Part shown: one piece after another, positions 2,862-63,177 of the stretch
Layout: each line of letters starts with the position of its first letter
Position numbering within the stretch: position 1 is the first letter of the stretch
Source of the DNA: a virus
Taxonomy: Duplodnaviria; Heunggongvirae; Uroviricota; Caudoviricetes
IMG/VR virus record: IMGVR_UViG_3300022555_000015
Direction: 5' to 3' (one strand)
Length of the DNA: 64,000 nucleotides
Notes under the pieces: generated by a model
Databases searched by the model: none
Told to the model about the DNA's origin: nothing
Seen by the model: the letters and a program-made list of their open reading frames with translations, nothing else
Translations under genes and position numbers: made by a program

Positions 2862-2877
2862 AATCTTAACTTCAAAA
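2862..2877 (-). promoter_or_regulatory. conserved upstream motif, candidate promoter (serves pilin-like gene)
   Basis: AATCTTAACTTCAAAA on plus strand. Confidence 0.4.
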
Positions 2878-3123
2878 ATTGGTTGCTTCCCCGATTACCC
2901 TGACCATTTCGAACAGGTCCATGATGGGTTTCCCATCCTTGGAGACGTGGATGCACTCTCCCTGGTCCTTCCCCGGAACCAAGATGAGGGTGTAGGTTCT
3001 GCCAGTGCCACTCTCTGCCTGAAGCATCCGGTTGAGGGCCCTGAGTTTCTCGTTGACTTCAGGGCTATGCGTGGGGTTCTCACACCAATCAGTCATGGGG
3101 ACAACCTCTCCTGGAGAGTCCAT
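2872..3123 (-). CDS. hypothetical protein (83 aa), paralog of 3143..3406
   Basis: shared block LILVPGKDQGECIHVSKDGKPI vs LILVPPVDSQECIHVSVGGKPL. Confidence 0.5.
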   Translation of the reverse strand: MDSPGEVVPMTDWCENPTHSPEVNEKLRALNRMLQAESGTGRTYTLILVPGKDQGECIHVSKDGKPIMDLFEMVRVIGEATNF

Positions 3124-3142
3124 AGAATTTCATGTGTCTTGC

Positions 3143-3406
3143 TTATCGGTGAAGTACTTCGTTCACATAGTCCTTGATGGACAGGATGATACCGTACAGG
3201 GTGCCGTGCATGACGTTGAGGGGTTTGCCCCCTACGGAGACGTGAATGCACTCCTGGGAATCCACGGGTGGAACCAAGATCAGGACAAACTCATGGTGCC
3301 TGTCCCGCTCTTCTGCTACCAGTAGGTCATTCAGGTGAAGTAGCGCATGGTTGATCTCATCCGAGAACGTGGGGGAGTTGGTTTGGTTGATCTCGATTTT
3401 CAGCAT
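3143..3406 (-). CDS. hypothetical protein (87 aa), paralog of 2872..3123
   Basis: ORF 3143..3493 trimmed to Met MLKIEINQ.. at 3406 to avoid 85-nt overlap with ligase gene; paralog similarity. Confidence 0.45.
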   Translation of the reverse strand: MLKIEINQTNSPTFSDEINHALLHLNDLLVAEERDRHHEFVLILVPPVDSQECIHVSVGGKPLNVMHGTLYGIILSIKDYVNEVLHR

Positions 3407-3407
3407 T

Positions 3408-4646
3408 TTAGTGACCGTCCTTCTCACCGGCACGGCAGAGGTACTCATCACTGACGTACTTGAGGATCTTTCGGTAGGTGGAGCCGTCATCATCCACCAC
3501 TCGGGCTTCGGGCTCGGAGGTCACAACCACACCCTCTCGGACGTGGGTACCCCCAGGAACCGTAGTCTTGCCGTCTCGAAGTCCCATGACTACCTGGGCA
3601 TTGAAGGGGCCCCGGTAGAGCACAGGGACCGTTTCCACACCGAAGAGTTCTGCAATCTTCTGGATGACATCCCACGGTTGGAAAACGTGGTCAATCTCCA
3701 CGTCGAAGATGCGAACCTTCCGTTCACCATTGGCACACCCGTAGGTCAAGTCCTGGACCTTGGACCCGTAGATTTCACCATGAATGATGAAGTGCTCAGT
3801 GAAGGGCCACTTCCCGTTGTCATTCTGGAAGACCTCTCGGACCTTGGCCTCCGGGAAGTACTTCTGGCCCATCAAAGCGTACAAGGTAGTCCCATCCGGC
3901 TTCTTGGCCGTAGTGTGGGAGCCTACGATGTACTCCGGGGTGTCCTTGCCATCGAAGACCATGCCCACCCTGAAATTTGTCCCATGGATCTTCTCGGTGA
4001 GACGAATTGCCTCACCCTCCGTGAACCAAGACGGATGGTTCTTGGAGTTTTCGATGTCCGTGTAGTGGACGAAGCTTCCAGGAGACCTGACCATCTCACC
4101 CCTCATGTCCACGGGGACAGGGGGCTCATACCGCTCGATGTGCAGAGCATGGCAGATGAGAAGGCTCTCCAGGTCCACCTTGGTTTCGGCCAGGAGGATC
4201 TCCTGGGCAAATGGGTTATCCTTGTAGACTTCGGCCAGAACCGTCTTGGCATTCACTGAGGTATCTGCAAGGCAGTCCAGAAGACCCTTGGGGGCAGAGA
4301 TCACCAATCCCTGGCTGATCTGGCCCCGGAGCCGAACGGTCTTGACCCTGTGACCGGGCCTTCCGTCCGGGAACTTCTTGGTTGCCTTGAGGAATGCGAA
4401 CTCCGGGACCGCAGGGTCCAGGAGAGCGTCCAGGTGGATGTAGATGCCCTTGTAGACGGGAGGGTAGCCCTCTTCCAGAAGGTACTCCAGTTCCCCATCC
4501 ACTACAGACTGATGGGGAGAGCCCACCCAGTCGGAAGTACGCACCACACACTGCCAGCCCATGCCCTGAATTTTGGCAAGGCTCAGGGTGTCAGCGTTGG
4601 GGTGTTGGTCCAGGATGAACGTGACCTGTCGAGCAAGGATTTTCAT
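3408..4646 (-). CDS. ATP-dependent RNA ligase (Rnl2/Rnl5-like nucleotidyltransferase with N-terminal extension)
   Basis: covalent nucleotidyltransferase motifs EKIHGTNF (motif I, KxHGxN as in Rnl2/REL1 family), HGEIYG, REGVVVT (IV), ILKYV (V); start set to ATG 4644-4646 (MKILARQ..), 35 nt downstream of motif 4683-4698; ORF-track start 4808 lies upstream of that motif. Confidence 0.75.
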   Translation of the reverse strand: MKILARQVTFILDQHPNADTLSLAKIQGMGWQCVVRTSDWVGSPHQSVVDGELEYLLEEGYPPVYKGIYIHLDALLDPAVPEFAFLKATKKFPDGRPGHRVKTVRLRGQISQGLVISAPKGLLDCLADTSVNAKTVLAEVYKDNPFAQEILLAETKVDLESLLICHALHIERYEPPVPVDMRGEMVRSPGSFVHYTDIENSKNHPSWFTEGEAIRLTEKIHGTNFRVGMVFDGKDTPEYIVGSHTTAKKPDGTTLYALMGQKYFPEAKVREVFQNDNGKWPFTEHFIIHGEIYGSKVQDLTYGCANGERKVRIFDVEIDHVFQPWDVIQKIAELFGVETVPVLYRGPFNAQVVMGLRDGKTTVPGGTHVREGVVVTSEPEARVVDDDGSTYRKILKYVSDEYLCRAGEKDGH

Positions 4647-4682
4647 TTGGATTCTCCACCCTCTCTTACTCCGAGAGGGGAG

Positions 4683-4698
4683 AATCTTAACTGAAATC
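4683..4698 (-). promoter_or_regulatory. conserved upstream motif (gene orientation GATTTCAGTTAAGATT), candidate promoter
   Basis: AATCTTAACTGAAATC on plus strand; instance of ~20-copy motif. Confidence 0.45.
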
Positions 4699-4749
4699 TT
4701 CGATGTGGTGTGTAGTAGTTGTATGTGGGTAAGTTGTGTAGGGTGGGGT

Positions 4750-5175
4750 TTATTCCCCCTGTTCAATGATCCGCAAAGTCTTTCGTTCGATAGCACCCAG
4801 TTTGGCAAGTTTTGCCCAATCTACGTTATCCAGAGCATCCTGCATTTCTTCCATGATGCTCTCATTTTTCTTATATTCCTCTTGTACTTCTTCTTCTTCT
4901 CCAGTGAGGGAGAGGATCTGATCCTCTAGTTCAGTAATCTGCTCCTGGAGTTTTTCTTTCTTCTGATTGATGCCGCTGATCTTTGTTGAAAGCTCATCAT
5001 TCTCATTCTTGATATCTTGAATGCTACTTTCTGCTTCACTACTTGCGTCACTTGCTGCATCCTCAAAACTCTTGCCTTTGCTAGTTTTCAGGGTTGCAAG
5101 TAGAAGGATACGTTCCTTCGAACCCTTGGGGAGAGTAGATGCTAGACGGATGATCTTAGACCGTAGAATGTCCAT
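4750..5175 (-). CDS. coiled-coil acidic protein with N-terminal LRSKIIRLAS leader (leader-family member 1)
   Basis: ORF-track start at 5184 is GTG; ATG at 5173-5175 gives MDILRSKIIRLASTLPKG.. matching leader of 13558, 13931 and 61677 genes; strongly coiled-coil C-terminus (E/K/Q-rich). Confidence 0.5.
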   Translation of the reverse strand: MDILRSKIIRLASTLPKGSKERILLLATLKTSKGKSFEDAASDASSEAESSIQDIKNENDELSTKISGINQKKEKLQEQITELEDQILSLTGEEEEVQEEYKKNESIMEEMQDALDNVDWAKLAKLGAIERKTLRIIEQGE

Positions 5176-5217
5176 GTGCTTCACCTATTCCAGTGAAGCT
5201 ATAGACGATACAACGAA

Positions 5218-5634
5218 CTACTTGAAGGGGGCAACCTTCACTGACTTGCAAACCTTGAGTCTGCGGATAGCTCTCTTGACTGTAACGGTTTCCCGTTCAA
5301 GCTTTCTAAGCTGGGATGTGAGGTACCTCTGCATGTACTTCACGGCAGCTTCAGGAGTCGCTCGGAGATCCGAAAGCTTGCACCATGCGGAACCCAAGTC
5401 TGATTTGAAGACGAAGACCTTGAATGTGCCAATCTCATTGATGGTGCCAACAATCTCTCTTACAGTGATGGAGTTCCCACGAATACGGTAAACCACATAC
5501 TTCTTCAAGAGCTTGGTGACAGTGGTAGTCGGTAAAGACTTCCCACCGTCAATGAGTTTGAATGCCGTCTTATCTTCCTTATCCTGAATGTCCTTCACGA
5601 CCTTCAGGTGCCGTTCTTTGGGGGTATCTGTCAT
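5218..5634 (-). CDS. hypothetical protein (138 aa)
   Basis: ORF track, basic protein, operon packing. Confidence 0.5.
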   Translation of the reverse strand: MTDTPKERHLKVVKDIQDKEDKTAFKLIDGGKSLPTTTVTKLLKKYVVYRIRGNSITVREIVGTINEIGTFKVFVFKSDLGSAWCKLSDLRATPEAAVKYMQRYLTSQLRKLERETVTVKRAIRRLKVCKSVKVAPFK

Positions 5635-5828
5635 TTCACTCTCACAACAAAGTAGGGATCGAGACTATAAACCCTGGTGAGTTTCTTCCAGTCCCAACCC
5701 TCCTTGTTGACAATACAGCATTCATCTTCGTCACTATCAACTACGGTAATCTTGTGCTCCGTCACGGGTCCTGATTCGGTCTCAACCGTGTCAGTGTAGA
5801 TCAGCACCCTTGGGCTACGGTTCTCCAT
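5631..5828 (-). CDS. hypothetical protein (65 aa)
   Basis: ATGA overlaps both neighbours. Confidence 0.4.
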   Translation of the reverse strand: MENRSPRVLIYTDTVETESGPVTEHKITVVDSDEDECCIVNKEGWDWKKLTRVYSLDPYFVVRVK

Positions 5829-6043
5829 CAGCCTTCTCCAGAGATGCTTGTTTCAAACGTAAGGGTCAGGTGTGTAGCTCTCGACAACCGGGTGATGTCC
5901 TTGAGAAGCCACTTATGTTCCTTGAGGATCTTAGCTTCATCCTCATCCCCTAGAGCTAGGATAATCGTGAACTCGTTCCCATCACGAATCTCTCCCATGA
6001 GATTTCGTTTGTGGACTATAACCCTGGGCTCATTGGGCTTCAA
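5828..6043 (-). CDS. hypothetical protein (71 aa)
   Basis: ORF track. Confidence 0.45.
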   Translation of the reverse strand: MKPNEPRVIVHKRNLMGEIRDGNEFTIILALGDEDEAKILKEHKWLLKDITRLSRATHLTLTFETSISGEG

Positions 6044-6272
6044 CGATATGCCCCTTTGTGAAGTGAAACTCGTAAGAGATCACCCTACCCAGGTTGCTTG
6101 GGATGGGGGGTCCAAGCCATACCTCAGTACCATCTGGAAATGTACCCATGAGCTTGTCCCAGGTACCCCCTCTGAGAGGGGACCCATGACTTACTAGGGT
6201 GCCTTCTTCCAGATGCCGACGAAGGTGGTAGAGGGAACCTACCAGCCAATCAGACATTCTTCCGGTATTCAT
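6030..6272 (-). CDS. hypothetical protein (80 aa)
   Basis: ATG 6270-6272 preceded by GAGG RBS that directly abuts the 3' end of the intron-containing tRNA. Confidence 0.45.
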   Translation of the reverse strand: MNTGRMSDWLVGSLYHLRRHLEEGTLVSHGSPLRGGTWDKLMGTFPDGTEVWLGPPIPSNLGRVISYEFHFTKGHIVEAQ

Positions 6273-6282
6273 ATTCCTCTAG

Positions 6283-6564: not shown

Positions 6565-6577
6565 AAACAGTAACCAC

Positions 6578-6826: not shown

Positions 6827-6836
6827 GGTTCCTTCT

Positions 6837-6911: not shown

Positions 6912-6930
6912 ATGTATCTACTGAACTGAG

Positions 6931-7597: not shown

Positions 7598-7924
7598 ATG
7601 AGCAAGTCTGTTCGATACACTCTCAGAGGCAAGTTCGGCGGTCAGTGGGTAGTCCTGGATCGCAACGGCACGAACCATCCCTACAGCACTCGGGACTTGG
7701 CCCGGCTGGCTGTTCACGAGGGCAACCTGGGCAGGCCCCTGCCCAAGAACGATCCGAAGCTGACTTCCAAGGTGGTCAAGGTGGGTGCTTCCAAGAAGAG
7801 TGCCCCCAAGGCCCAGTCTCCCCTTCAGGCACTCGTTCAGAGGTTCACGTCTGACCTCATGAGCGTGCTGTCCAATCATGTGGACAATGTCTGCAAGGAG
7901 ATGACTCTCTCCAAGGCATCCTGA
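7598..7924 (+). CDS. hypothetical basic protein (108 aa)
   Basis: plus ORF with AGAGGTAG RBS 7 nt upstream; antisense ORF 7526..7966 is low-complexity. Confidence 0.5.
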   Translation: MSKSVRYTLRGKFGGQWVVLDRNGTNHPYSTRDLARLAVHEGNLGRPLPKNDPKLTSKVVKVGASKKSAPKAQSPLQALVQRFTSDLMSVLSNHVDNVCKEMTLSKAS

Positions 7925-8028
7925 TTCTTCGTCTGTCGGTTCACACTTCCTTTCTCCTCTTAACAAGAGGAGCCCCCCGGACCCCCCAACACGGAGCCCT
8001 AGGGCTCTTCTATGCTAGGAGGTAGAAA

Positions 8029-8601
8029 GTGATTCTTAGTGATTCCGCAATACTCGCTGCTAGGTCTGCAAGCCAGATTGTCATTACACCGTTTGACGAG
8101 AAGTGTCTCGGGTCAAACAGTTATGACGTTCATCTCAGTGAACACCTAGCCATCTACAACTCGAATGCCGACCCGGAGCTCTGGGGTGAGGGGATCATTG
8201 ATCCCAAGGTTCCACCAGAGATTCGGAGGTTCAAGATTCCAGCTAGTGGTATGGTCCTTCGGCCTGGGACCTTGTACCTTGGGTCCACGGTGGAATACAC
8301 CGAGACTCATGGGTACATCCCTAACCTGAATGGTAAATCCAGTACAGGTAGGCTCGGCATCTTCATCCATGTAACGGCTGGACAGGGTGACGTTGGTTTC
8401 TGTGGGTACTGGACCCTGGAGATCATCGTGGCTCACTCCATCATTCTGTACCCTGGAATGGTAATCGGGCAGCTTTCCTACAGTGATGTCAAGGGAGTAG
8501 TCCTTGTACCGTATGGCAACAAGGCCAATGCGAAGTACCGTCAACAGGAAGCTTTGCCCCAGCCATCACAGATGTGGAAGAACTTCGGGGTGCAAAAATG
8601 A
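8029..8601 (+). CDS. dcd: dCTP deaminase / dUTPase-superfamily protein
   Basis: LGSNSYDVHL, GKSSTGRLGIFIHVTAGQGDVGFCGYWTLEI match the Dcd trimeric dUTPase-fold motifs. Confidence 0.75.
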   Translation: MILSDSAILAARSASQIVITPFDEKCLGSNSYDVHLSEHLAIYNSNADPELWGEGIIDPKVPPEIRRFKIPASGMVLRPGTLYLGSTVEYTETHGYIPNLNGKSSTGRLGIFIHVTAGQGDVGFCGYWTLEIIVAHSIILYPGMVIGQLSYSDVKGVVLVPYGNKANAKYRQQEALPQPSQMWKNFGVQK

Positions 8602-9429: not shown

Positions 9430-9433
9430 CCTT

Positions 9434-10460: not shown

Positions 10461-10504
10461 GAGATGTACCTTTTGATGGCTGTTACCCGGACTATGGCCG
10501 GTTG

Positions 10505-10577
10505 CGTTCCCATGGGGAATCGGACCCCAAACTTACGGATTTGAAATCCGCTGCTCTGCCAATTGAGCTATGGGAAC
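10505..10577 (-). tRNA. tRNA-Trp-like with anticodon UCA (reads UGA; opal suppressor or code-4-type tRNA-Trp)
   Basis: GTTCCCA-TA-GCTC-AATTGGCA-GAGC-A-GCGGA-TTTCAAA-TCCGT-AAGTT-TGGGG-TCCGATT-CCCCA-TGGGAAC-G; D arm near-identical to bacterial tRNA-Trp (TAGCTCAATTGGCAGAGCA); loop UUUCAAA gives U33 and anticodon UCA. Confidence 0.65.
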
Positions 10578-10611: not shown

Positions 10612-11088
10612 TTAACTCGCTTTCTTGGTTACCCGTTGATTTTTTGGGGCACGGTGCATGTGTTGGGTTTTGGCATGAGCACTGACGGTTCCCTTGACGG
10701 ACCCTGCCGCTGGAGAAAGGAAAGCCAAGATCACTCCGTCCACCACTCGACGGACAACCGCATTCCTCTTGTCCAGGGAACCCAGATACCTCATGGATTG
10801 GAGACACTTGATGAGGTCTCGGAACGGGACTGGGGACTTTCCAGGGATCTGAAGCTGGTAAGGGGGTGAGCCATCCCTAGGGTGGGGTGGCGGGGGAATG
10901 AATACAGGCTTCGTCGGGTTAGGACTCACCTTGGAGCGGTCATTCCCGAACTTGGGACCCCGCACCTGGGGCTGATTCTGGGGCTTTGGATGAACCTTAG
11001 CCTTGGGCTGAACCTTGGTCTTAGCCTTTGGCCGAACTTTAACCTTGGGCTGAACCTTGGATTTACGGGCCGGAAGCTTCTTGGTCAT
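10612..11088 (-). CDS. lysine-rich histone H1-like basic protein (KVQPKVKVRPKAKTKVQPKAKVHPKP repeats)
   Basis: ORF trimmed to ATG 11086-11088 (MTKKLPARKSK..) downstream of variant motif 11104-11116; tandem nucleotide repeats cttgggctgaacctt at 10960-11060. Confidence 0.55.
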   Translation of the reverse strand: MTKKLPARKSKVQPKVKVRPKAKTKVQPKAKVHPKPQNQPQVRGPKFGNDRSKVSPNPTKPVFIPPPPHPRDGSPPYQLQIPGKSPVPFRDLIKCLQSMRYLGSLDKRNAVVRRVVDGVILAFLSPAAGSVKGTVSAHAKTQHMHRAPKNQRVTKKAS

Positions 11089-11103
11089 GTGAGGGATATT
11101 ACC

Positions 11104-11116
11104 CCTAACCTGAATT
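11104..11116 (-). promoter_or_regulatory. variant upstream motif (gene orientation AATTCAGGTTAGG)
   Basis: CCTAACCTGAATT on plus strand 16 nt upstream of ATG 11088. Confidence 0.3.
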
Positions 11117-11917: not shown

Positions 11918-11971
11918 GGTCTGTAACTCCTAAACTGTGCCTTTCCGTTGTCTTACCCCGACAGTCGCACT

Positions 11972-11987
11972 TCTTAACCTGAAAACT
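11972..11987 (-). promoter_or_regulatory. conserved upstream motif, candidate promoter
   Basis: TTCTTAACCTGAAAAC on plus strand. Confidence 0.4.
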
Positions 11988-13557: not shown

Positions 13558-13914
13558 ATGCCTACCCTACGATCCAAGATCATCAAGCTTGCCCATACAC
13601 ACCCTGAGCTTCGGAAGGAACTTCTTCCGATCTTGACTGAGAAGACCGCAGCCTACAACCCTACTGAACTTCTTAGGGTAGCAAAAGCAGTTGCGGCCTT
13701 GAACCTTCATACGGCAGCAAGCTCTGAAGACGTAGAGGCACTTTCCCGTATGTTTGAAGTGATGGGTTCCCTCATGTACATCCTGAACCAGGGCAAGTTG
13801 AAAGGGAAGCTCACTCAGTTGATCTTGAGAAACAGGGTCATCAGTGACAACCTTTATGAAATTTGGGGTGAGATGTTCATGCCCGGTGAAGTGACTGACG
13901 GATCTGCTATCTGA
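13558..13914 (+). CDS. leader-family protein B1 (MPTLRSKIIKLAHTHPELRKELLPIL...)
   Basis: AGGAG RBS; paralog of 13931..14320 over full length (KLKGKLTQLILRNRVIS vs KLKGMLTQEIVRNQSIQ). Confidence 0.55.
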   Translation: MPTLRSKIIKLAHTHPELRKELLPILTEKTAAYNPTELLRVAKAVAALNLHTAASSEDVEALSRMFEVMGSLMYILNQGKLKGKLTQLILRNRVISDNLYEIWGEMFMPGEVTDGSAI

Positions 13915-13930
13915 ACTTTAGGAGACTCCC

Positions 13931-14320
13931 ATGCCCAACCTTCGTGCCGCAATCATCAAGCTTGCACATGCTCACCCTGAGTTTCGTAGTGCTCTTCTCC
14001 CGGTATTGACCAAGAAGAAGGCTGGGACATACAATGCTATGGTTCTTGTACAAGCTGTAAAGGGCTTGGTTGAGAATCTTCATGGGACTCGTGAGACTCT
14101 CCCTTACAATGAGATTGCAGTAAGACTTGTGGTTATCTATGAGCAACTGGGGTTCATTCTCAGGTTCCTGGGTAGGAACAAATTGAAGGGTATGTTGACA
14201 CAGGAGATTGTCAGGAATCAGTCTATTCAGTCTGCCCTTGGTGATCTTCTATCCCTCGACTTGGATACTATGGATAATGTCCATACCCTGATGGACTCCA
14301 GCGAACATCCCATTGTATAG
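13931..14320 (+). CDS. leader-family protein B2 (MPNLRAAIIKLAHAHPEFRSALLPVL...)
   Basis: AGGAG RBS; tandem paralog of B1. Confidence 0.55.
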   Translation: MPNLRAAIIKLAHAHPEFRSALLPVLTKKKAGTYNAMVLVQAVKGLVENLHGTRETLPYNEIAVRLVVIYEQLGFILRFLGRNKLKGMLTQEIVRNQSIQSALGDLLSLDLDTMDNVHTLMDSSEHPIV

Positions 14321-16230: not shown

Positions 16231-17225
16231 GCGTGAAGGCTTCTTTCTACGGCCCCTACATTACCCACGGTATTGTTGAACTGCCTACAGAAGTCCAGGC
16301 ACGAACCGGAACAGATGGGGTCCTGGTGTGTGTCATGTGTCTGGAACCAATTGAATCTCTCCAACCTTACTTCCCTCATGGTAGTCATCTCACCGATGGG
16401 TTTGCCCTGTTCCCTCATGTAGATGGGGCACGGGTAGTGGTTCCCACCAATGTAGGTCACTTCGTCCAGGACCAGGGGACAGCAATGGTTGTCAGTATCC
16501 CTTAATCCCCGAACCTCAACCTTAGCCTGGAGGTTCTTGATCCTGTACTTGAGGATTGGATGAGCATTGAGGATACCCTCCGGGATGCCCACGGCTTCCA
16601 TCGTTCGGCCACTCTGGGCAGCGGGAATGAGCCGGATGTCAGCCACCCCAAGATCATGGGCAAACTGAACGATCCCGGTTGCTTCCGGGAGATTTTTGTC
16701 AGTCAGGACCACACCTACGGTTGTGTAGACTCTGTGACTCAACCACCGAATGTTCTCGATGACCTTCTCCCACTGACCCTTCACACCGGCCATAGTGTTC
16801 CCGGTACTTGCACAGCAAGCATCCAGGGAGACACTGAAGTCATCCACCCCAGCCTGGATGAGTTCCTCATAGATTTCTCTCGGAGCGGACCCGTTGGTAG
16901 ACACAGCCACTCGGTCACAAGTGAGACTTGCGAGTCCTACCAGTAGTGGGAGCGACTTGTGGAGGGTCGGTTCACCACCAGAGAAGCGAATGTGCTTCAA
17001 TCCGTGGCTTTGCCACTCACTCAGGGTTCTGACGGCTTTTGCCAAGGGGAGGCTTCCTCGGTACTCAGGCTTGACCCCTCGGCAGTAGCCACATTTGAAG
17101 TTGCAGGCATCCGTGAGGATCATCTCGCATCGCCACAGGGGAGAGCAAGCACTGGTTTGGAGGGCCCTTGCGTCGGACAGGGTGTAGAAACCGATGTCAT
17201 CCAGTCTGGTCATGTGGGTACTCAT
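16227..17225 (-). CDS. radical SAM enzyme (MoaA/PqqE-like core with C-terminal Cys-rich auxiliary-cluster region)
   Basis: ILTDACNFKCGYC (CxxxCxxC), FSGGEPTLH; C-terminal CCPLV..NHYPCPIY..CSGSCLDFC; start set to MSTHM at 17225 downstream of motif 17246-17261. Confidence 0.7.
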   Translation of the reverse strand: MSTHMTRLDDIGFYTLSDARALQTSACSPLWRCEMILTDACNFKCGYCRGVKPEYRGSLPLAKAVRTLSEWQSHGLKHIRFSGGEPTLHKSLPLLVGLASLTCDRVAVSTNGSAPREIYEELIQAGVDDFSVSLDACCASTGNTMAGVKGQWEKVIENIRWLSHRVYTTVGVVLTDKNLPEATGIVQFAHDLGVADIRLIPAAQSGRTMEAVGIPEGILNAHPILKYRIKNLQAKVEVRGLRDTDNHCCPLVLDEVTYIGGNHYPCPIYMREQGKPIGEMTTMREVRLERFNWFQTHDTHQDPICSGSCLDFCRQFNNTVGNVGAVERSLHA

Positions 17226-17245
17226 ACTTACCACATCCAGGGGGA

Positions 17246-17261
17246 GACTTAACCTGGATTC
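17246..17261 (-). promoter_or_regulatory. conserved upstream motif, candidate promoter
   Basis: GACTTAACCTGGATTC on plus strand. Confidence 0.4.
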
Positions 17262-19132: not shown

Positions 19133-19168
19133 ATTATCCTCTTACACCCCTCTTACCGTGGGATGGGG

Positions 19169-19186
19169 GATTCTTAACCTGGATTC
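19169..19186 (-). promoter_or_regulatory. conserved upstream motif, candidate promoter
   Basis: GATTCTTAACCTGGATTC on plus strand. Confidence 0.4.
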
Positions 19187-19676: not shown

Positions 19677-19700
19677 GTCCCTCTTACCTTGGACTGGCCG

Positions 19701-19717
19701 AAACTTAACCTGGAATT
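19701..19717 (-). promoter_or_regulatory. conserved upstream motif, candidate promoter
   Basis: AAACTTAACCTGGAATT on plus strand. Confidence 0.4.
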
Positions 19718-30505: not shown

Positions 30506-30536
30506 GGTTGCCTCCCCACCATTACCACTCTGCATT

Positions 30537-30555
30537 GAAATCTTAACTGGAAATC
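30537..30555 (-). promoter_or_regulatory. conserved upstream motif, candidate promoter
   Basis: GAAATCTTAACTGGAAATC on plus strand. Confidence 0.4.
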
Positions 30556-31016: not shown

Positions 31017-31030
31017 TGTCTACCTCACCC

Positions 31031-31225
31031 CTACTTACCGCAGACGAGACGAATCTTAACCTGAAAACAACCTGGGGTATTCCTGATCTGGGACACCTTC
31101 TTGGGGGCCTCGACAACCCACACACCACCCGGACGCTTGGTGACCTTGAAGGTGGTGTCTTCTCCACGCTCTACACGGAGACGAAGAAGCTCACTCATGG
31201 CCGTTCGGCACATGATGTTGGTCAC
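31031..31225 (-). CDS. hypothetical protein (64 aa)
   Basis: ORF track. Confidence 0.4.
   Translation of the reverse strand: MTNIMCRTAMSELLRLRVERGEDTTFKVTKRPGGVWVVEAPKKVSQIRNTPGCFQVKIRLVCGK
31052..31067 (-). promoter_or_regulatory. conserved upstream motif, candidate promoter
   Basis: AATCTTAACCTGAAAA on plus strand. Confidence 0.4.
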
Positions 31226-31321
31226 TTACCGTTGCCATTCCAGACGGATGATCCAGAGGGTCAGGAGCACGAAGATGACAGTGTTCATAGCAACCTCGCT
31301 ATACTTACTGTAACCGTCGGC

Positions 31322-31338
31322 AATCTTAACCTGAAATC
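31322..31338 (-). promoter_or_regulatory. conserved upstream motif, candidate promoter
   Basis: AATCTTAACCTGAAATC on plus strand, abutting stop of 31337..31456. Confidence 0.4.
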
Positions 31339-35400: not shown

Positions 35401-35423
35401 GCCCTACTTACTGTCCCGACCCT

Positions 35424-35441
35424 GAATCTTAACTCGAAATC
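35424..35441 (-). promoter_or_regulatory. conserved upstream motif, candidate promoter
   Basis: GAATCTTAACTCGAAATC on plus strand. Confidence 0.4.
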
Positions 35442-40806: not shown

Positions 40807-40830
40807 GGTTCTCTTACCCTGGGGTCAACC

Positions 40831-40847
40831 AATCTTAACCAATAATC
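40831..40847 (-). promoter_or_regulatory. conserved upstream motif, candidate promoter
   Basis: AATCTTAACCAATAATC on plus strand. Confidence 0.4.
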
Positions 40848-42289: not shown

Positions 42290-42327
42290 CTTGTGCCTCT
42301 TACCCCTCTCTTACCGAAGGGGGTGGT

Positions 42328-42345
42328 AATCTTAACCTAAATTCG
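42328..42345 (-). promoter_or_regulatory. conserved upstream motif, candidate promoter
   Basis: TAATCTTAACCTAAATTC on plus strand. Confidence 0.4.
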
Positions 42346-43948: not shown

Positions 43949-43990
43949 ACGGCACCAGGGCCTTTCAGACCCTTTACCGTGGGAAAGCCG

Positions 43991-44007
43991 AATCTTAACT
44001 AGAAATC
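43991..44007 (-). promoter_or_regulatory. conserved upstream motif, candidate promoter
   Basis: AATCTTAACTAGAAATC on plus strand. Confidence 0.4.
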
Positions 44008-44778: not shown

Positions 44779-44801
44779 GCCTCTCTTACCGCACGGGAGG
44801 G

Positions 44802-44819
44802 GAATCTTAACCTGGAATC
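44802..44819 (-). promoter_or_regulatory. conserved upstream motif, candidate promoter
   Basis: GAATCTTAACCTGGAATC on plus strand. Confidence 0.4.
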
Positions 44820-49702: not shown

Positions 49703-50143
49703 TCAGAAAGGGGAAGAGGTAGAATAGAGACGAAGGGGGTCTTCTTCATTGATTGGCTCATCCTCGGTGTCCTCTGAATATGGTAGTTGGGTCTTGTAGG
49801 TGATCTTGGTGCCGCAACTACAGGTTACCGTATGGATACCGGGACTACAGTCCCAAGAAATGTGCTCATGCCTACATTTCTTGGCCTTTTGGATCTTCTC
49901 TTCCTTTAGCTTTGCAGCCATCTCTGGAGGAAGCTCTACCGTTGCAATCTCTCGGAACCTGGGGTTATCAATTCCCCACTCTTCCATGTGTTGTGTGCAG
50001 TAGTAGAATTTACGACCATCACTCTCGATCCCTACCCAATCGGCAGGTTGAGAGCAGATGATAGAATCCATGTAACCTAAATCAACATCACACTTGGGGA
50101 CTCGGATGGTTCCGTCAGTGTTTCGGATAAAAGCTTCATCCAT
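49703..50143 (-). CDS. Cys-motif protein, paralog 1 of 4
   Basis: FIRNTDGTIRVPKCDV...YYCTQH. Confidence 0.5.
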   Translation of the reverse strand: MDEAFIRNTDGTIRVPKCDVDLGYMDSIICSQPADWVGIESDGRKFYYCTQHMEEWGIDNPRFREIATVELPPEMAAKLKEEKIQKAKKCRHEHISWDCSPGIHTVTCSCGTKITYKTQLPYSEDTEDEPINEEDPLRLYSTSSPF

Positions 50144-50326
50144 ACTTGTATTACCCCTACAGCTTCACCAATCGACCATCACAGAGCCGATGGAGCCAAG
50201 GATACTTTCGACCCGTACCATCTTCGGTGAGATACCGTTGATCCCCTAGGTGTCTCCAATAAGGCTTACCGCAGACTTCACAGATGCAGTCCCCGGCAGC
50301 ATAAGTGAAGTCAGGGTAGCTGTCCG

Positions 50327-54536: not shown

Positions 54537-55271
54537 CTACTTGTTGAAGAGATAGTTGAGTACCGCACTACCCATCTTGTGCTGCTCGTCTACCACGATG
54601 GTGTTGGCACCTTCTCTTGCGATCTTGACTGCCGAGCGAAGCTTGGCAACACGGTCCTTGAGCGCAGCCTTGCGTTCAGCAGGAAGGGCTCCACTGAACT
54701 TGACCGTGGACCAGTAGCCCACAACCACGTCTTCGTGGAACACTTCCACCTGGGCCGGGTGTTTATCCGTTGCCGGGGACTTCTCGATCACCTTCGGCAG
54801 CTTCTTGGTACGGTGGGTCTCCACAGGCTTCGTGGCCCAGCAGTTCTGTGAAGAGTCCTTCTCCCACTGTTCGCTGGGGTCCAGGACCGGAAGCTTGTCC
54901 ACGAAGGTTGCAAGATCCGTTACCTGCTTCTCCAGGAAGAGAAGGGCACAGACCGGGACATCCTTCAGGAGAGGCACACCCTCCACGGTCACATCGGCCC
55001 TGGCACCCTGGTTGGCCGTCTCCTTCTGGAGGGTGAGGTCAAACAGCTTGCCCAGGAGCCCGCTGATCTCCGGGAAGGTGTCTTCCACCCGAAGCTGAAC
55101 GAGAGTGCTCTCGGGAGGAAGGGCTTCCCCACCGTCCTGCATGGGACGGTAGCGACGGGAGATACCCGACAGGATCGGAGACTTCTCGATCCGATGGTAG
55201 GCTTCCGTGAGGCCCTTGAGAGCGGCAGACTTGGTATCCTTCTCGACCGTGAGTAGCTGATGAAGACGCAT
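54537..55271 (-). CDS. hypothetical protein (244 aa)
   Basis: ORF track. Confidence 0.55.
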   Translation of the reverse strand: MRLHQLLTVEKDTKSAALKGLTEAYHRIEKSPILSGISRRYRPMQDGGEALPPESTLVQLRVEDTFPEISGLLGKLFDLTLQKETANQGARADVTVEGVPLLKDVPVCALLFLEKQVTDLATFVDKLPVLDPSEQWEKDSSQNCWATKPVETHRTKKLPKVIEKSPATDKHPAQVEVFHEDVVVGYWSTVKFSGALPAERKAALKDRVAKLRSAVKIAREGANTIVVDEQHKMGSAVLNYLFNK

Positions 55272-56046: not shown

Positions 56047-56070
56047 GCTTCTCCTACCGTAGCCGGGGTC

Positions 56071-56086
56071 AATCTTAACCCCGAAA
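56071..56086 (-). promoter_or_regulatory. conserved upstream motif (minus-oriented half of back-to-back pair)
   Basis: AATCTTAACCCCGAAA on plus strand. Confidence 0.45.
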
Positions 56087-56092
56087 GTGGAT

Positions 56093-56107
56093 TTTAGGTT
56101 AAGATTG
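56093..56107 (+). promoter_or_regulatory. conserved upstream motif (plus-oriented half of back-to-back pair)
   Basis: TTTTAGGTTAAGATT 26 nt upstream of ATG 56133. Confidence 0.45.
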
Positions 56108-56132
56108 GGACCGGAGATAGTAAGTAGGGTAC

Positions 56133-56738: not shown

Positions 56739-56747
56739 CTAGAGCCA

Positions 56748-57674: not shown

Positions 57675-57682
57675 AGGTAACT

Positions 57683-59258: not shown

Positions 59259-59264
59259 CCCTCA

Positions 59265-59669: not shown

Positions 59670-59679
59670 GGTAGCCTCT

Positions 59680-59949
59680 ATGGTGCCCCCGAAGCTTGAC
59701 CCAACACTGTTCACTTGGCAGATATGGAGAGCGGGGTCACCCCATACTCTCGGGCTTGCTTGCCGAGAGTGTGATCTAATCTCAGCCCGTGGCAAGACCC
59801 TCCTACGGGAACATATCGTTGGCTGGTGTTTGGCTAACGAGCTACAGTGCCGTCCCAAGGGGGATCATGTAGCTGTGATGTGCTACCTGGACGGGGAACA
59901 CTTCTGGTTCCATCTCACTACTCGTGAGTTCCAGGCACTCTGGGGCTGA
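59680..59949 (+). CDS. hypothetical protein (89 aa)
   Basis: trimmed to ATG 59680 with GAGGTAG RBS. Confidence 0.4.
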   Translation: MVPPKLDPTLFTWQIWRAGSPHTLGLACRECDLISARGKTLLREHIVGWCLANELQCRPKGDHVAVMCYLDGEHFWFHLTTREFQALWG

Positions 59950-60469
59950 ACCAATCGGTATCTTCAGTTACGAAGATTGCCAGGGCAATTGCCTTGTCGA
60001 GCGGGATACCCTTGGCTAGGCACCAAGCCAAGCTGAATGAAAGAGGCTCCATCTCCTCAATGTCTTCTTCTTGCTTGAGACTCTTGATGACAGTCCTCAT
60101 AGCCTTCAGAGTATTGTAAGACACTAATCCGAATTGTTTCTTGATACCCTCTAGTTCATCCTTGCCAAGACTAGCTAGAGCTTTCTTGGACACAGCCAAG
60201 CGTTGCTTGTCCGTATACCAAATGAACATGTTGGGGCCGGGGCATACAAAACGATTGGCACCCATGTCAATGTTCAAATCGGCTGAAGACTTGCCCTCCA
60301 GGACTACCTGGGTAGCTTTGCCCTCTGGGGTGAGCAAAGCCGTCAGGGTCATCTTCTCAGCCAGTGCTCGACGGAAGACACCGAGGATCTTGAAAGGGAT
60401 CGTGGCATCCACCAAGTCACTGATCTTCTTGACCAGAATCGTCTTGGAGAACTCGGCAGGGTCACTCAC
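59918..60469 (-). CDS. hypothetical protein (183 aa)
   Basis: ORF track. Confidence 0.5.
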   Translation of the reverse strand: MSDPAEFSKTILVKKISDLVDATIPFKILGVFRRALAEKMTLTALLTPEGKATQVVLEGKSSADLNIDMGANRFVCPGPNMFIWYTDKQRLAVSKKALASLGKDELEGIKKQFGLVSYNTLKAMRTVIKSLKQEEDIEEMEPLSFSLAWCLAKGIPLDKAIALAIFVTEDTDWFSPRVPGTHE

Positions 60470-60846
60470 TTCACACCCCAGTTAGCTACGAACTCAACCC
60501 ACTCAACATCAGCCATATCTTTAACAGCTTCCATGGTATCATAAACGAAGTCTGCCTGGACAAGCTCCCATTCAATCCTCAGAAGGTTACAGGGCACGGT
60601 AAGCTTTCGGAAACTCTCGTACCATTTATGAACATGAATGGAGAAATTCTCATGGTCTACGATCCTATCCTGTTCCACAGCCTTTCGGCAGAAATCCACG
60701 CCCTTCAGATATCCCCAGTGCATACCCTCAGACATGGACTCCATGCTAGGGTCCCGCTTGTAGCCGTGTTCCATCAGGTCACAGAGAGTGAGCAATCGGC
60801 TCTGATAGGTGTTCATGGCTTGTTTCCATAGGTGATGATGGACCAT
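60466..60846 (-). CDS. hypothetical protein (126 aa)
   Basis: ATGA overlap. Confidence 0.5.
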   Translation of the reverse strand: MVHHHLWKQAMNTYQSRLLTLCDLMEHGYKRDPSMESMSEGMHWGYLKGVDFCRKAVEQDRIVDHENFSIHVHKWYESFRKLTVPCNLLRIEWELVQADFVYDTMEAVKDMADVEWVEFVANWGVK

Positions 60847-61211
60847 ACTTTGATAAAGACTCTGGCAACATCAGCCGGGAAGTACTTCAGGTCACGCTTC
60901 CCCATCAGGGTACGCATGAACTCACAAATGAATTCTACTTGTTTGATTGAAGCATCGTAATTCCAGTAACTAAGCCCTGACCTACATTTTGCCCGCTTCC
61001 CCTTCAGGTCATTTAGGTAGGACTCCAAGGTCTCCAGGTTAGCTGCCTTGCGGCAAAGCTTGATACCTTTGAGTGCCCAGTCCTTGCGTTCCACTACATC
61101 TGGGTTCTGTTCTCGGTAGTCACAGACGACTATGAGCCAGAGAGCAAAGTCAGGTGTAGGTGTAAGAGTCTTGGGGTGAGGGGTCAGAGTCTTGGGGTGA
61201 GGGGTCATCAT
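60813..61211 (-). CDS. hypothetical protein with in-frame 21-bp tandem duplication (TPHPKTL x2) at N-terminus
   Basis: agagtcttggggtgaggggtc repeated at 61173-61214. Confidence 0.45.
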   Translation of the reverse strand: MMTPHPKTLTPHPKTLTPTPDFALWLIVVCDYREQNPDVVERKDWALKGIKLCRKAANLETLESYLNDLKGKRAKCRSGLSYWNYDASIKQVEFICEFMRTLMGKRDLKYFPADVARVFIKVWSIITYGNKP

Positions 61212-61442
61212 TTATACCTCTGTGTTGAACTTGCACTTGGTACATCGCCATTCTTGGCTGTAATCTGTACGGTGACCATCATAGCTCTCCGACTCATACT
61301 CTTCCCATTCGTGAGTACACCGTGCCCATTGAAGCCATACCTTGATCTGTGCCCGTGCTTCTTGAAGGATAGCTTTGGCCTTGTTCCGCAGGAAGGCATT
61401 GAGAACCTTGGTGTTAGGGCAGAGCTTCTTGTAGTGTGCCAT
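61212..61442 (-). CDS. zinc-finger-like small protein (76 aa)
   Basis: ORF track. Confidence 0.4.
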   Translation of the reverse strand: MAHYKKLCPNTKVLNAFLRNKAKAILQEARAQIKVWLQWARCTHEWEEYESESYDGHRTDYSQEWRCTKCKFNTEV

Positions 61443-61642
61443 CAGGGTCTCTTTGATCTATCAAGCTTGGGGTCTTCATGGATAGCACAGATAGGGCAGG
61501 CTTCCTGATCCCCTACCCTGGGGGCACCACCAAACCTGCGGGTACGCAAGGTATGTCCACAATCATAGGTGATGTCCCAGTCATGGGTGGTGCCACTATC
61601 CGAGAACTGACAAAAGGGACTGTGTGTTAGGTGTGCAATCAT
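61442..61642 (-). CDS. Cys/His small protein
   Basis: trimmed to ATG 61640-61642 (MIAHLTHSPFCQF..) to clear divergent plus gene. Confidence 0.4.
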   Translation of the reverse strand: MIAHLTHSPFCQFSDSGTTHDWDITYDCGHTLRTRRFGGAPRVGDQEACPICAIHEDPKLDRSKRP

Positions 61643-61676
61643 TGTGTCCCTAGTTACTCTATAGGTGTGGTTCGGT

Positions 61677-62096
61677 ATGGACAATCTACGTTCCAAAATC
61701 ATCAAGTTAGCCCATTCTAAACCGGAACTTCGACCTTACCTACTTCCGATCCTGAAGCAAGCCACGGACTTCCCTACCCAGGAAGCCCTGGACAAGTACC
61801 TCAAGGACCATCCAGGAGCCGACAAGTCCAAGCACAAGGTTACGGATTCGGACAAGGGGAAGGAACTTTCGGACAAGGCAGAGCAGTCTAGTGCAGAAGC
61901 AAATCGAACTAGAGACTGGCGTCAATCTAGTGAAGCTCATGCCCAAGCCATGCACGACCAGTCTGTAGCAGCTAAACACCATGAGGGACAGGGAAACACA
62001 GAAAAGGCCAAATACCATCGAGAAAAGGTCAAGAAGCATAAGAGTAGAACGGATGCAAAGACTTACAAGAGTGTTGTTGGTGAGGGCTGGGAATAG
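61677..62096 (+). CDS. leader-family protein (MDNLRSKIIKLAHSKPELRPYLLPIL...), highly charged/disordered remainder
   Basis: ORF-track start 61665 is GTG; ATG at 61677 gives the conserved leader. Confidence 0.5.
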   Translation: MDNLRSKIIKLAHSKPELRPYLLPILKQATDFPTQEALDKYLKDHPGADKSKHKVTDSDKGKELSDKAEQSSAEANRTRDWRQSSEAHAQAMHDQSVAAKHHEGQGNTEKAKYHREKVKKHKSRTDAKTYKSVVGEGWE

Positions 62097-62354
62097 GCAC
62101 CCCTCATTCTTTCTCCCGTAGAACGGTTCCTACTGGAACCATCCCATCCACGGCAAATCCCCACTGATTCGGGCCCTCCTTCATTCGGAAGTGAGCGAGC
62201 CCCTGGAAGCGGACTTCTACCCCGTCTCCTACCAAGATGGTCCCTCTAGGTATAGACCTACCCTCAGAGTCTCCCATCAGGACCTATTGTGATCCTTTCG
62301 GGTAGCCTTCGAAGCACTCCCTGACCATAATCTGGAACGGCTCTGGTGTAGGCA

Positions 62355-62663
62355 TCAAGGTCTCCTGGACCTCTCCTTACGCCTATCCGTCGAGACCTTA
62401 CCCCCGGTTTGTTTGGAGATGAACTTCACGGTCTTGACAAACGTGGGGTGGGCTAAGAGAGCCTCAACCGTATTGTATTCGGCTTCAAGCTCCCGATTGC
62501 TGAACGTCGCATGGATAGCTCTGTGGCAGTCTGTACAGATAGGGAGTGTGTCCTTCCCACCCCGGCTACGGGGGACTAGGTGGTGGTCACTGAGCCGAAG
62601 CCACGGGTAGGCACGGTCACATAGGGGGCACTGTGGGATAATCTGATCTGGGTAGCACGGCAT
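62355..62663 (-). CDS. HNH endonuclease
   Basis: CPLCDR...DHHLVPRSRGG...CTDCHRAIH (HNH with flanking CxxC zinc knuckles). Confidence 0.65.
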   Translation of the reverse strand: MPCYPDQIIPQCPLCDRAYPWLRLSDHHLVPRSRGGKDTLPICTDCHRAIHATFSNRELEAEYNTVEALLAHPTFVKTVKFISKQTGGKVSTDRRKERSRRP

Positions 62664-62664
62664 G

Positions 62665-62680
62665 TTTTCAGGTTAAGATT
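62665..62680 (+). promoter_or_regulatory. conserved upstream motif, candidate promoter
   Basis: TTTTCAGGTTAAGATT then ccc..GTAAAGGGG RBS, ATG 62705. Confidence 0.45.
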
Positions 62681-62704
62681 ACCCCATCCCATAGTAAAGG
62701 GGAC

Positions 62705-62935
62705 ATGGGAACAAGGCAATACGTCGATCTCAAGGAAGGCAACCGAGTCATCTGCCAGGGTACTGAGCGGAAGTTCAAGGGCCTGACTGGCACGGTCTAC
62801 ACCATCTGGACCAAGGACTACGAGAGAGGCCCTTACTGCGTGAAGTTCGGCAACAGCCCGTGCATGTGCTGGGACTTCAAGCGGGAAGAACTCCGTAAGC
62901 TGACCCCTAGAACCTCCCGGTCGATTTCAAGTTAA
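62705..62935 (+). CDS. small KOW-like protein, cassette copy 1
   Basis: NRVICQGTERKFKGLTGTVY...EELRKLTPRTSRSISS; paralog of 62964..63173. Confidence 0.5.
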   Translation: MGTRQYVDLKEGNRVICQGTERKFKGLTGTVYTIWTKDYERGPYCVKFGNSPCMCWDFKREELRKLTPRTSRSISS

Positions 62936-62938
62936 GTT
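62923..62938 (+). promoter_or_regulatory. conserved upstream motif (variant GATTTCAAGTTAAGTT)
   Basis: overlaps 3' end of upstream gene; GTAAGGGGG RBS follows. Confidence 0.4.
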
Positions 62939-62963
62939 ACCCCACCATCAAGGTAAGGGGGAT

Positions 62964-63173
62964 ATGGAAAACATGAAGCTCAAGATGAATGATCGGGTGA
63001 TCTGCCAGGACAGTGATGTGCCCTTCTACGGCATGGCAGGCACGGTCCAGGGCATCCAGACCCAGGGCTACGAGCAGGGGCTCTGCATCGTGACCCTGGA
63101 CAAGTACCCCGGCAGGGAGTTCCAGTTCGAACGGTCAGACCTCCGTAAGCTTTCCGGGTCGATTTCAGGTTAA
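62964..63173 (+). CDS. small KOW-like protein, cassette copy 2
   Basis: DRVICQDSDVPFYGMAGTVQ...SDLRKLSGSISG. Confidence 0.5.
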   Translation: MENMKLKMNDRVICQDSDVPFYGMAGTVQGIQTQGYEQGLCIVTLDKYPGREFQFERSDLRKLSGSISG

Positions 63174-63177
63174 GATT
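63161..63177 (+). promoter_or_regulatory. conserved upstream motif, candidate promoter
   Basis: GATTTCAGGTTAAGATT overlapping 3' end of cassette copy 2; GTAAGGGGAGGG RBS. Confidence 0.45.

Follow-up and report, generated by a model that had tools for sequence, protein, structure and literature searches.

A repeated two-box element marks gene boundaries in a 64,000-nucleotide stretch of DNA from an uncultivated phage (Duplodnaviria; Heunggongvirae; Uroviricota; Caudoviricetes; IMG/VR record IMGVR_UViG_3300022555_000015), hereafter called the window. The element spans about 41 bp and consists of GATTTCAGGTTAAGATT (box 1), a variable, C-rich spacer of 12 nt and RGT(A/T)AG (box 2). It is probably a class-specific phage promoter, with an unusual consensus and a probable leaderless configuration that would be common to a clade of huge phages. 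From sequence comparisons we infer a transcription start near +33 (counted from the G of GTTAAG in box 1 as position 0), leaderless translation, a protein that reads the boxes and a temporal class of genes. With modest confidence, we favor a bipartite promoter of a specific gene class: box 2 would serve as a -10-like element of a non-sigma70 kind, transcription would start near +33 and many mRNAs would be leaderless.

A rigid two-box element at gene boundaries

Searching the window for the 14-mer TTCAGGTTAAGATT with up to two mismatches returned 14 matches against 0.44 expected. We aligned all occurrences of GTTAAG with their flanks and derived a position weight matrix (PWM) spanning -8 to +26. 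Scanning the window with this PWM gave 19 sites of 25-48 bits and nothing between 8 and 25 bits, and 20 shuffled control sequences gave 0-2 matches at 8 bits or above. Each of the 19 sites had the orientation of the next gene and lay at a gene boundary. Behind 18 of them, an ATG-initiated open reading frame (ORF) of at least 30 codons began 28-68 nt after position 0; in 13 of the 19, the upstream ORF stopped inside the motif or at most 27 nt before it, using the TAA of GTTAAG, a TGA at -9 or -12, or a TAG at -3. The sites at 56079 (-) and 56098 (+) stood back to back at the strand switch (56.05-56.13 kb) and filled a divergent gap of 86 nt.

An earlier reading of the window (the original prediction) had listed about 20 copies of the motif, always in gene orientation, with a flip where the coding strand changes near 56.07-56.11 kb. 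Nineteen of the 20 correspond to full sites whose start was counted differently, whereas the variant at 11104 proved to be a half site below 8 bits. Gene orientation held at all 19 sites, and the back-to-back pair lies exactly at the proposed flip. The PWM count and the comparison of genes with boundaries that had been suggested, run on the window, placed every site at a boundary. The proposed distance of 25-35 nt from motif to ATG held in part: measured from the end of ATT, 8 sites had 24-26 nt, whereas most others had 31-59 nt.

Box 1 occupies the 17 bp from -8 to +8 (G-A-T/A-T-T/C-C/T-A-R-GTTAAG-A/T-T-T; in short, GaTTtcaR-GTTAAG-ATT), and no conservation was seen upstream of -10 in the site alignment. 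The spacer is free in sequence apart from its C-richness and a terminal Y(+18) R(+19), and it leads to box 2 at +21 to +26 (R-G-T-(A/T)-A-G). A purine-rich stretch follows at +27 to +31, and then a Y/G-R step at +32/+33. What the original prediction had described as CCCC after the motif is this C-rich spacer, and what it had taken for a loosely placed ribosome-binding site, GGTAAGAGG, is the second box, with its GTA fixed at +22 to +24 in 19/19 window sites. The distance between the boxes was identical in 47 sites, of which 19 lie in the window and 28 on further contigs assigned to this phage. In the 44 sites that were aligned, G22 and T23 were invariant (44/44), and A25 and G26 were present in 43 and 39, respectively. 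No case of GTTAAGATT from box 1 without box 2 was found in the window.

Function and predicted start point

Box 2 kept its position at sites where the ATG lay 39-94 nt from position 0 and had its own canonical Shine-Dalgarno (SD) sequence (GAGG, GGAG or AAGG) 8-15 nt upstream. It was also kept at two sites on other contigs, L174:5630 and L141:4344, where tRNA-like sequence came next and no credible ORF with a ribosome-binding site was present. Back-to-back pairs of the motif occupied four divergent junctions. RNAalifold found no consensus structure across the 44 sites, with a mean z of -0.2 and folding energies like those of shuffles. GTAAG is unable to pair with the CCUCC anti-SD, and in the rest of the window the canonical GGAG/GAGG is most frequent at the usual 9-10 nt from the ATG. 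We observed no enrichment of sigma70-consensus sites in 28-47 kb (7 versus 10.5 +/- 3.5 expected) and none of terminator-like hairpins. The original prediction had preferred a phage-specific promoter to a terminator or a repeat within coding sequence, and the strict orientation, the restriction to boundaries, the divergent pairs, the lack of conserved RNA structure and the two sites before tRNA-like DNA bear this out. Altogether, a transcription signal with promoter function is well supported by the sequence evidence.

The position of start codons suggested where transcription might begin. Among the 44 aligned sites, the first ORF-opening ATG lay at +33 in 13, +35 in 2, +39 to +51 in 18, +56 to +117 in 7 and, in frame, at +28 in 1, while 3 sites had no ORF; no first ATG was seen at +29 to +32, +34 or +36 to +38. 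Two of three extra sites beyond the right end of the window also had an ATG at +33, in agreement with independent gene calls, which brought to 15 the sites with an ATG 11 nt after GTAA. At sites with a far ATG, the SD started right after +32 (for example, GGTAAG-AGAGGG-GTAAGAGGCACAAG-ATG and AGTAAG-TATAGC-GAGGTTGCT-ATG). Position +33 was a purine in 37/44 sites and never C, and position +32 was never A and was C or T in 31/44. ATG triplets between +9 and +30 were not depleted (11 seen, 5 of them at +19, versus about 13 expected).

We propose that a single protein complex reads both boxes, which would explain why the spacing between them is invariant. Box 2 would act as a -10-like element, at -12 to -7 relative to the start, and box 1, centered near -31, as a -35-like or activator box. 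Transcription would start near +33, giving a leaderless mRNA at the roughly one third of sites with an ATG at +33 and, at the remaining sites, a leader of 7-35 nt that opens directly with a canonical SD. At the two positions where sigma70 requires A(-11) and T(-7), box 2 carries G, and the protein that reads it is therefore probably phage encoded or phage modified; it would be a sigma-like specificity factor or an RNA polymerase rather than unmodified host sigma70. The genes behind the motif are accessory, RNA-repair, anti-defense and tRNA genes, many of them spaced by only 250-500 bp. Box 1 would mark these genes as one regulon, probably of an early/middle class, as judged from the gene content and a spacing typical of early/middle regions of large phages.

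Two further ideas were tried and rejected. Pairing of a spacer CCCC with a downstream GGGG to sequester the SD did not hold, as G-rich spacers keep the G-rich stretch and there is no consensus fold. GGTAA did not behave as a general ribosome-binding site of the phage either; that place is taken by the GGAG/GAGG peak, and outside motif sites a GTAA at 11 nt was hardly ever seen.

Table 1. Motif sites and partial elements in the window. Coordinates of full sites cover positions -8 to +32; offsets (+n) are counted from the G of GTTAAG as 0.
Feature	Coordinates	Strand	Score (bits)	Following start and remarks
Motif site	2838-2878	-	39.3	ATG at +68 (2802)
Motif site	4659-4699	-	30.8	ATG at +45, RNA ligase gene 4646-3408; SD GGAG in the 12 nt after +32
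Motif site	11946-11986	-	33.8	ATG at +61 (11917), own SD AGGAG
Motif site	17221-17261	-	36.0	Radical SAM gene next; in-frame ATGs at +28 and +40; upstream stop is the TAA of GTTAAG
Motif site	19146-19186	-	43.5	ATG at +46; second GTAAGAGG (SD) from +33
Motif site	19677-19717	-	39.0	ATG exactly at +33 (19676)
Motif site	30515-30555	-	25.4	Box 2 GGTAAT; GAGG at +33, ATG at +42
Motif site	31028-31068	-	44.8	ATG at +44 (31016); SD GAGG just past +33
Motif site	31298-31338	-	45.0	GAGG at +33; ATG at +42 opens a 20-codon hydrophobic micro-ORF
Motif site	35401-35441	-	35.0	ATG exactly at +33 (35400); RtcB gene later in the same unit
Motif site	40807-40847	-	32.1	ATG exactly at +33 (40806), ORF of 33 codons
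Motif site	42304-42344	-	41.0	Second GTAAGAGG from +33; ATG at +47
Motif site	43967-44007	-	40.4	Box 2 GGTAAA; ATG at +51, 533-amino-acid Cys-rich Stig1-like protein
Motif site	44779-44819	-	46.5	ATG exactly at +33 (44778)
Motif site	56047-56087	-	32.8	Box 2 GGTAGG; ATG at +33 (56046); back to back with 56090-56130
Motif site	56090-56130	+	38.6	ATG at +35 (56133)
Motif site	62664-62704	+	41.6	Box 2 AGTAAA; ATG exactly at +33 (62705), agrees with independent gene call on L210
Motif site	62923-62963	+	38.3	ATG exactly at +33 (62964); upstream stop is the TAA of GTTAAG
Motif site	63161-63201	+	48.5	ATG at +48 (63217)
Half site	11086-11116	-	<8	ATTCAGGTTAGG fused to GGGGTAAT; GTAA 14 nt before ATG 11088; not a full member
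Box-2-only element	50141-50160	-		GGGGTAATACAAGT-ATG, GTAA 11 nt before ATG 50143; same form as GGGCGTAATACAACC-ATG of related phages

The micro-ORF behind the site at 31330 (31226-31288 (-), MNTVIFVLLTLWIIRLEWQR) has a good SD and is the first ORF after that site; its TAA stop lies inside the GGTAAG that precedes the next gene. The motif was absent from 19.7-30.5 kb and 44.8-56.0 kb, and two islands of plus-strand genes within the minus-strand region, 7598-8601 (+) and 13558-14320 (+), had no motif upstream; at least one further promoter class must therefore exist. Two other repeats were seen in the window. CCWGG occurred 372 times against about 145 expected from base composition, and the 9-mer GGATGCCCT occurred 15 times, mostly on the coding strand and with unconserved flanks; it appears to reflect codon usage for Asp-Ala-Leu and not a signal.

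Related phages and further copies

We used homologues of the DUF7873 protein (61-76% identity) to fetch six related loci, on contigs of 10-256 kb with 53-66% GC. DUF7873 and a VWA-like neighbor are common to all six and the window, and some of the loci have one or another of its genes for RtcB, the Stig1-like protein, the radical SAM protein and ADP-ribosylglycohydrolase as well. Box 1 was found in none of the six. Many of their genes had a (C/G/T)GTAA box exactly 11-12 nt before an SD-less ATG, in the form GGGCGTAATACAACC-ATG in L188, L190 and L191, GCGTAACAGGGGAC-ATG in L186 and TGGTGTAACACCACC-ATG in L193. The related loci, being GC-rich, contain few GTAA tetramers (29-44 in each 20.7-kb locus examined, counting the two strands), but 5-6 of those in each locus lay at this single distance from a start. 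A GTA(A/C/T) 11-12 nt before the ATG was present in 29 genes, and an SD 4-mer accompanied it in 1/29, versus 65/146 of the other genes (Fisher p = 6e-6). Several boxed genes formed divergent pairs with an ATG-to-ATG gap of 35-45 nt, which leaves no room for leaders. The L193 box, TGGTGTAA(C/G/T), as TGGTGTAAT departs from the extended -10 consensus TGnTATAAT at one base only, the G at -11.

A few box-2-only starts also occurred in the window, such as the one at 50143. Because box 2 stands without box 1 both there and in the relatives, box 2 is the lineage-wide element and box 1 an addition specific to the phage of the window. In L193 (53% GC), the flanks upstream of 2881 and 4452, GTTTCAAG-CGTAAC and AATTCAG-CGTAAG, resemble ATTTCAG-GTTAAG of the window. 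Box 1 may have originated as a duplicated copy of a -10-type box. A broader proposal, which we put forward only tentatively from these sequences, is that many genes in a clade of uncultivated huge phages (52-66% GC) begin with a non-sigma70 box of the -10 type, (C/G/T)GTAA, exactly 7 nt before the AUG, that their mRNAs are leaderless and that the specificity factor is phage encoded; the phage of the window would have added a 17-bp box at a fixed distance of 12 nt, creating a separate regulon of at least 47 promoters. Such a strategy would be unlike those of phiKZ, AR9 and T4.

Further copies came from a strict two-box scan of contigs from the Joint Genome Institute and other metagenomes, which gave eight loci (seven contigs, several of them overlapping) with 3-7 sites each. 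The 25 extra sites on these multi-site loci had the same geometry as those of the window, and box 2 was only GTAAG or GTTAG. The loci have 51-54% GC, and their similarity to the window, in DNA or protein, is limited to one tRNA and one weak protein match. They derive from metagenomes Ga0114951 and Ga0209083; source environments are represented by JGI 3300009502 (Ga0114951), the Ga0209083 project, ENA ERZ1426631 and run ERR4195937. Since a 77.5-kb contig of Ga0114951 encodes a protein 100% identical to the DUF7873 protein of the window, we conclude that the multi-site contigs belong to the genome of this phage or of one very close to it. The DUF7873 protein of the window is also carried by a 215-kb contig of the collection. 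Three more sites lay within 10 kb past the right end of the window (L210). At L210:19982 (+), about 6 kb past the right end, box 1 read GGTAAG for GTTAAG, making both boxes identical, and the called ATG was at +30, the one departure from the +33 rule among the sites.

Wider searches returned little. In IMG/VR, the exact 14-mer gave only single matches per contig, and two stricter two-box scans gave 17 and 1 single matches. Scanning 185,579 species genomes yielded 14 loci in unrelated phyla, all single copy except for one tandem duplicate in a Bacteroidetes metagenome-assembled genome. In both collections this is about the level of chance; the motif is therefore not a known type of host promoter, and the scan of species genomes gave no clue to the host. 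No match was obtained by megablast of 20 kb against a phage collection, no relatives by a protein-based IMG/VR search with the RNA ligase, and no record by exact look-ups of the RNA ligase and of a 282-aa ORF of the window.

The window encodes an Rnl-type RNA ligase, RtcB, an ADP-ribosylglycohydrolase, a radical SAM protein, an SPFH protein, DUF7873, an Apyc1-like metallo-hydrolase, a methyltransferase-glycosyltransferase fusion and two tRNAs. By tblastn, the best phage relative of the RNA ligase was in LR745208.1, a 485-kb uncultured phage (50% identity), followed by Caulobacter and Brevundimonas jumbo phages. The 41 kb of LR745208.1 that we examined contained no motif and no obvious repeated signal, and the literature searched made no mention of accession LR745208. 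On contigs of the same phage (L179 18-4499 and L174 2800-3176), we found an array of 21 tRNAs and a tmRNA (Rfam, 91.6 bits) with the tag peptide ANDNASPSELRQAA; the tmRNA and the use of canonical SDs point to a bacterial host. The genome probably measures several hundred kb, and the scattered contigs covered here total about 150 kb. The source belongs with the huge phages that Al-Shayeb et al. described, which can encode sigma70, AsiA-like and TFIIB-like proteins (PMC7162821).

The tRNA at 10504-10577 (-) has the anticodon TCA and would read UGA (ARAGORN label "SeC"; Rfam tRNA model, 66.8 bits), and it is about 85% identical to tRNA-Lys(ttt) of sister contigs L159 and L179. It may be an opal suppressor, which would hint at partial stop-codon recoding in the phage. 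The tRNA-like stretches at L174 5671-6120 and L141 4400-4640 show clear D-arm and T-arm signatures with long insertions; default ARAGORN and Rfam did not call them, and relaxed intron settings gave low-confidence calls. The DUF7873 protein (54537-55271 (-)) is very widely conserved, with more than 6000 homologues, among them cellular ones of Chloroflexota, Ktedonobacteria, Sorangium and Armatimonas at 53-58% identity, and is a useful marker for fetching related huge-phage contigs.

Alternative readings and known systems

Several observations weigh against a promoter with a start at +33. Box 1 contains TAAGAT with G-14, A-11 and T-7, is the most AT-rich part of the motif and could itself be an extended -10. 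The two boxes are alike (GTTAAGA and GGTAAGA), as a regulator binding in tandem would also explain. In the relatives, the contrast between boxed and SD-led genes is in part a matter of position, since an SD would lie where the box does. Two starts may lie closer than +33, at +28 (site 17253, in-frame ATG) and +30 (the weak variant L210:19982), both of them doubtful. The six bases before the ATG, in the region of +27 to +31, are more purine-rich in sites with an ATG at +33 than in others, a hint that ribosome binding is selected for and hence that the start lies upstream of +27. Lastly, Pfam and PHROG scans of 30 window and 10 sister-contig proteins, a small fraction of the genome, found no sigma factor, RNA polymerase or obvious regulator.

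Some of these observations would fit a different geometry. The original prediction had suggested TAAGAT as a -10-like element, with leaders of about 20 nt. In an elaborated form, box 1 would be an extended -10 (G-14, T-12, A-11 and T-7 in GGTTAAGAT) with no -35, used by host RNA polymerase with a host or phage sigma factor and starting near +14. Box 2, at transcript positions +8 to +13, would then either bind ribosomes in an unusual way or be a -10-like element for sigma-dependent pausing, such as occurs at lambdoid late promoters. TAAGAT fits TAnnnT, with the A invariant, the T present in 38/44 sites and an invariant G two bases upstream. Box 2 repeats the core of box 1, as expected of a pause element read by the same sigma region, and in one third of sites its distance of 6 nt from the ATG is one at which SDs normally lie; the purine-rich stretch before the +33 ATGs fits as well. 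However, the predicted start at +13 to +16 was a purine in only 27-48% of sites, unlike +33, and 7 sites have ATG triplets at +17/+19. A fixed distance from promoter to ribosome-binding site has no known function, and box 2, which cannot pair with the anti-SD, was kept before tRNA-like DNA and before distant ATGs with their own SD. In the relatives, box 2 stands alone in divergent gaps of 35-45 nt, where an upstream promoter would fall in the neighboring gene. We regard this geometry as unlikely, and the proposal of TAAGAT as the -10 with leaders of about 20 nt was not supported in detail.

An operator rather than a core promoter would be improbable, in our estimate. A phage regulator would bind the direct half sites GTTAAG and GT(A/T)AG, 22 bp or two helical turns apart, in the manner of a stoperator. 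The stoperator of mycobacteriophage L5 is a single asymmetric box of about 13 bp that is oriented with transcription, lies at stop/start junctions and is bound by the repressor. The motif shares its strict orientation and its stop/start junctions, both defining traits of stoperators, and its boxes are similar and lie on the same face of the helix. But box 2 is locked to the ATG/SD boundary and is shared by related phages that lack box 1. Back-to-back pairs fill the divergent gaps where core promoters must lie, with no other promoter-like signal visible there, and no repressor or integrase was seen in the limited sample of genes.

A translation signal would resemble the start-associated sequence (SAS) and extended SAS of cluster K mycobacteriophages, the SAS being a conserved 13-mer that contains the SD and lies 3-8 bp before start codons only. 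It would recruit ribosomes or a phage translation factor just upstream of starts, and we think this highly improbable. Like stoperators and the SAS, the motif is oriented, multi-copy and intergenic at stop/start junctions, and it has the near-fixed start distance of the SAS, GTAA lying 11 nt before the ATG in 15 sites and 11-12 nt in relatives. Huge phages also encode S1/S21-like proteins, and some lack canonical SDs (PMC7162821). Unlike stoperators and the SAS, however, the element has two boxes with a rigid 12-nt spacer and occurs in divergent pairs and before tRNA-like DNA (two sites). Box 2 lacks the SD core; two thirds of sites have their ATG elsewhere, at least 39 nt from position 0, with an ordinary SD, and canonical SD use is evident in the same genome. 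The 17-bp upstream box at a fixed distance would have no role. We give hardly any weight to an RNA-level processing or structural element in polycistronic transcripts: the sites are oriented and intercistronic, and 8/44 single sequences had z < -2 for +9 to +39 against their own shuffles, but there is no consensus structure, the boxes are not mutually complementary and divergent back-to-back copies cannot share one transcript.

We compared the bipartite promoter that we favor with known systems. T4 middle promoters have a MotA box, (a/t)(a/t)TGCTT(t/c)A, near -30 and 12 +/- 1 bp upstream of a sigma70 -10, and SPO1 promoters of the gp28 and gp34 sigma factors are likewise class specific and bipartite. 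As in these phages, the motif is present in many copies, pairs an upstream box with a -10-region box at a fixed distance and precedes small genes of early/middle type, often a few hundred bp apart; the gap from the end of box 1 to the start of box 2 is 12 bp, as from the MotA box to the -10. In contrast, its sequence has no relation to TGCTTtA or TAnnnT, transcription is predicted to start right at the start codon, and no MotA, AsiA or sigma homologue was found among the 40 proteins scanned. With respect to sigma70, box 2 as a -10 has G-11 (44/44) and G-7 (39/44), box 1 as a -10 has A-11 and T-7 with a start that lacks purine preference, and no TTGACA-like block lies 16-18 bp upstream of a -10.

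Promoters of extracytoplasmic function (ECF, group 4) sigma factors, such as TGAAAC-N16-CGTA of B. subtilis SigW, offer another possible likeness: the boxes lie exactly 22 bp apart, start to start, and the -10 core is (C/G)GTA, compared with RGTA in the window and GCGTA(A) in the relatives. Unlike ECF promoters, box 1 reads TTAAG with no AAC core, and no Sigma70_r2 or r4 match was found among the 40 proteins, a small part of the genome. In promoters of T7-like single-subunit RNA polymerases, conservation is unbroken over about 23 bp (-17 to +6); the motif has a variable 12-nt spacer between its boxes. Archaeal promoters have a TFIIB recognition element and a TATA box near -27 before a leaderless ATG. 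With a start at +33, TTAAGATT would lie at -32 to -25, close in geometry, but the tmRNA, the canonical SDs and the bacterial-phage relatives of the proteins do not fit. In Actinobacteria and Deinococcus, leaderless starts have a -10 box directly upstream of the start codon (Shell et al. 2015, as cited in PMC8244752). The phages resemble them in having two gene classes, one with an SD and one with a -10-type box about 7 nt before an SD-less ATG, and in very short divergent gaps, and differ in a box that is not TANNNT and in the setting of a huge phage.

Early promoters of jumbo-phage virion RNA polymerases carry a single, highly conserved AT-rich block of about 10 nt centered at -10, and the split beta/beta' subunits are phage encoded (PMC7598289). 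Box 1 is a conserved AT-rich 9-mer, and polymerase genes could be sought only in scattered contigs that total about 150 kb. The late promoter of the AR9 non-virion RNA polymerase reads A(-11)ACA-N6-U-A/G(+1) (PMC7598289), and AR9 leaders are 26-491 nt long (PMC5312081). With a start at +33, the motif would have GTAA at -11 to -8, six free bases, then C or T at -1 in 31/44 sites and A or G at +1 in 37/44, a comparable geometry; it differs in GTAA for AACA, and the AR9 promoter lacks an upstream box and depends on uracil-containing DNA. In phiKZ, late promoters consist of TATG where transcription starts (PMC7598289, PMC5312081, PMC8244752), and there are no leaderless transcripts (PMC8244752). 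No phiKZ/AR9-type polymerase genes were seen in the available sequence. We treat the ECF, T4 middle and AR9 likenesses as leads only. Our literature search found no description of the motif, and matches to the motif string were primers only.

The transcription signals of huge phages seen only in metagenomes are essentially unknown, and a 41-bp element in 47 copies offers an operon map and a handle on the cognate sigma factor or polymerase. The motif alone recognizes scattered contigs of the same phage, as the eight loci found here illustrate, and such a compact orthogonal promoter could serve as a synthetic part once its reader is known. If the start at +33 is true, a large share of genes in this phage and its relatives would be leaderless, which would bear on how host translation is redirected and on how gene starts are called.

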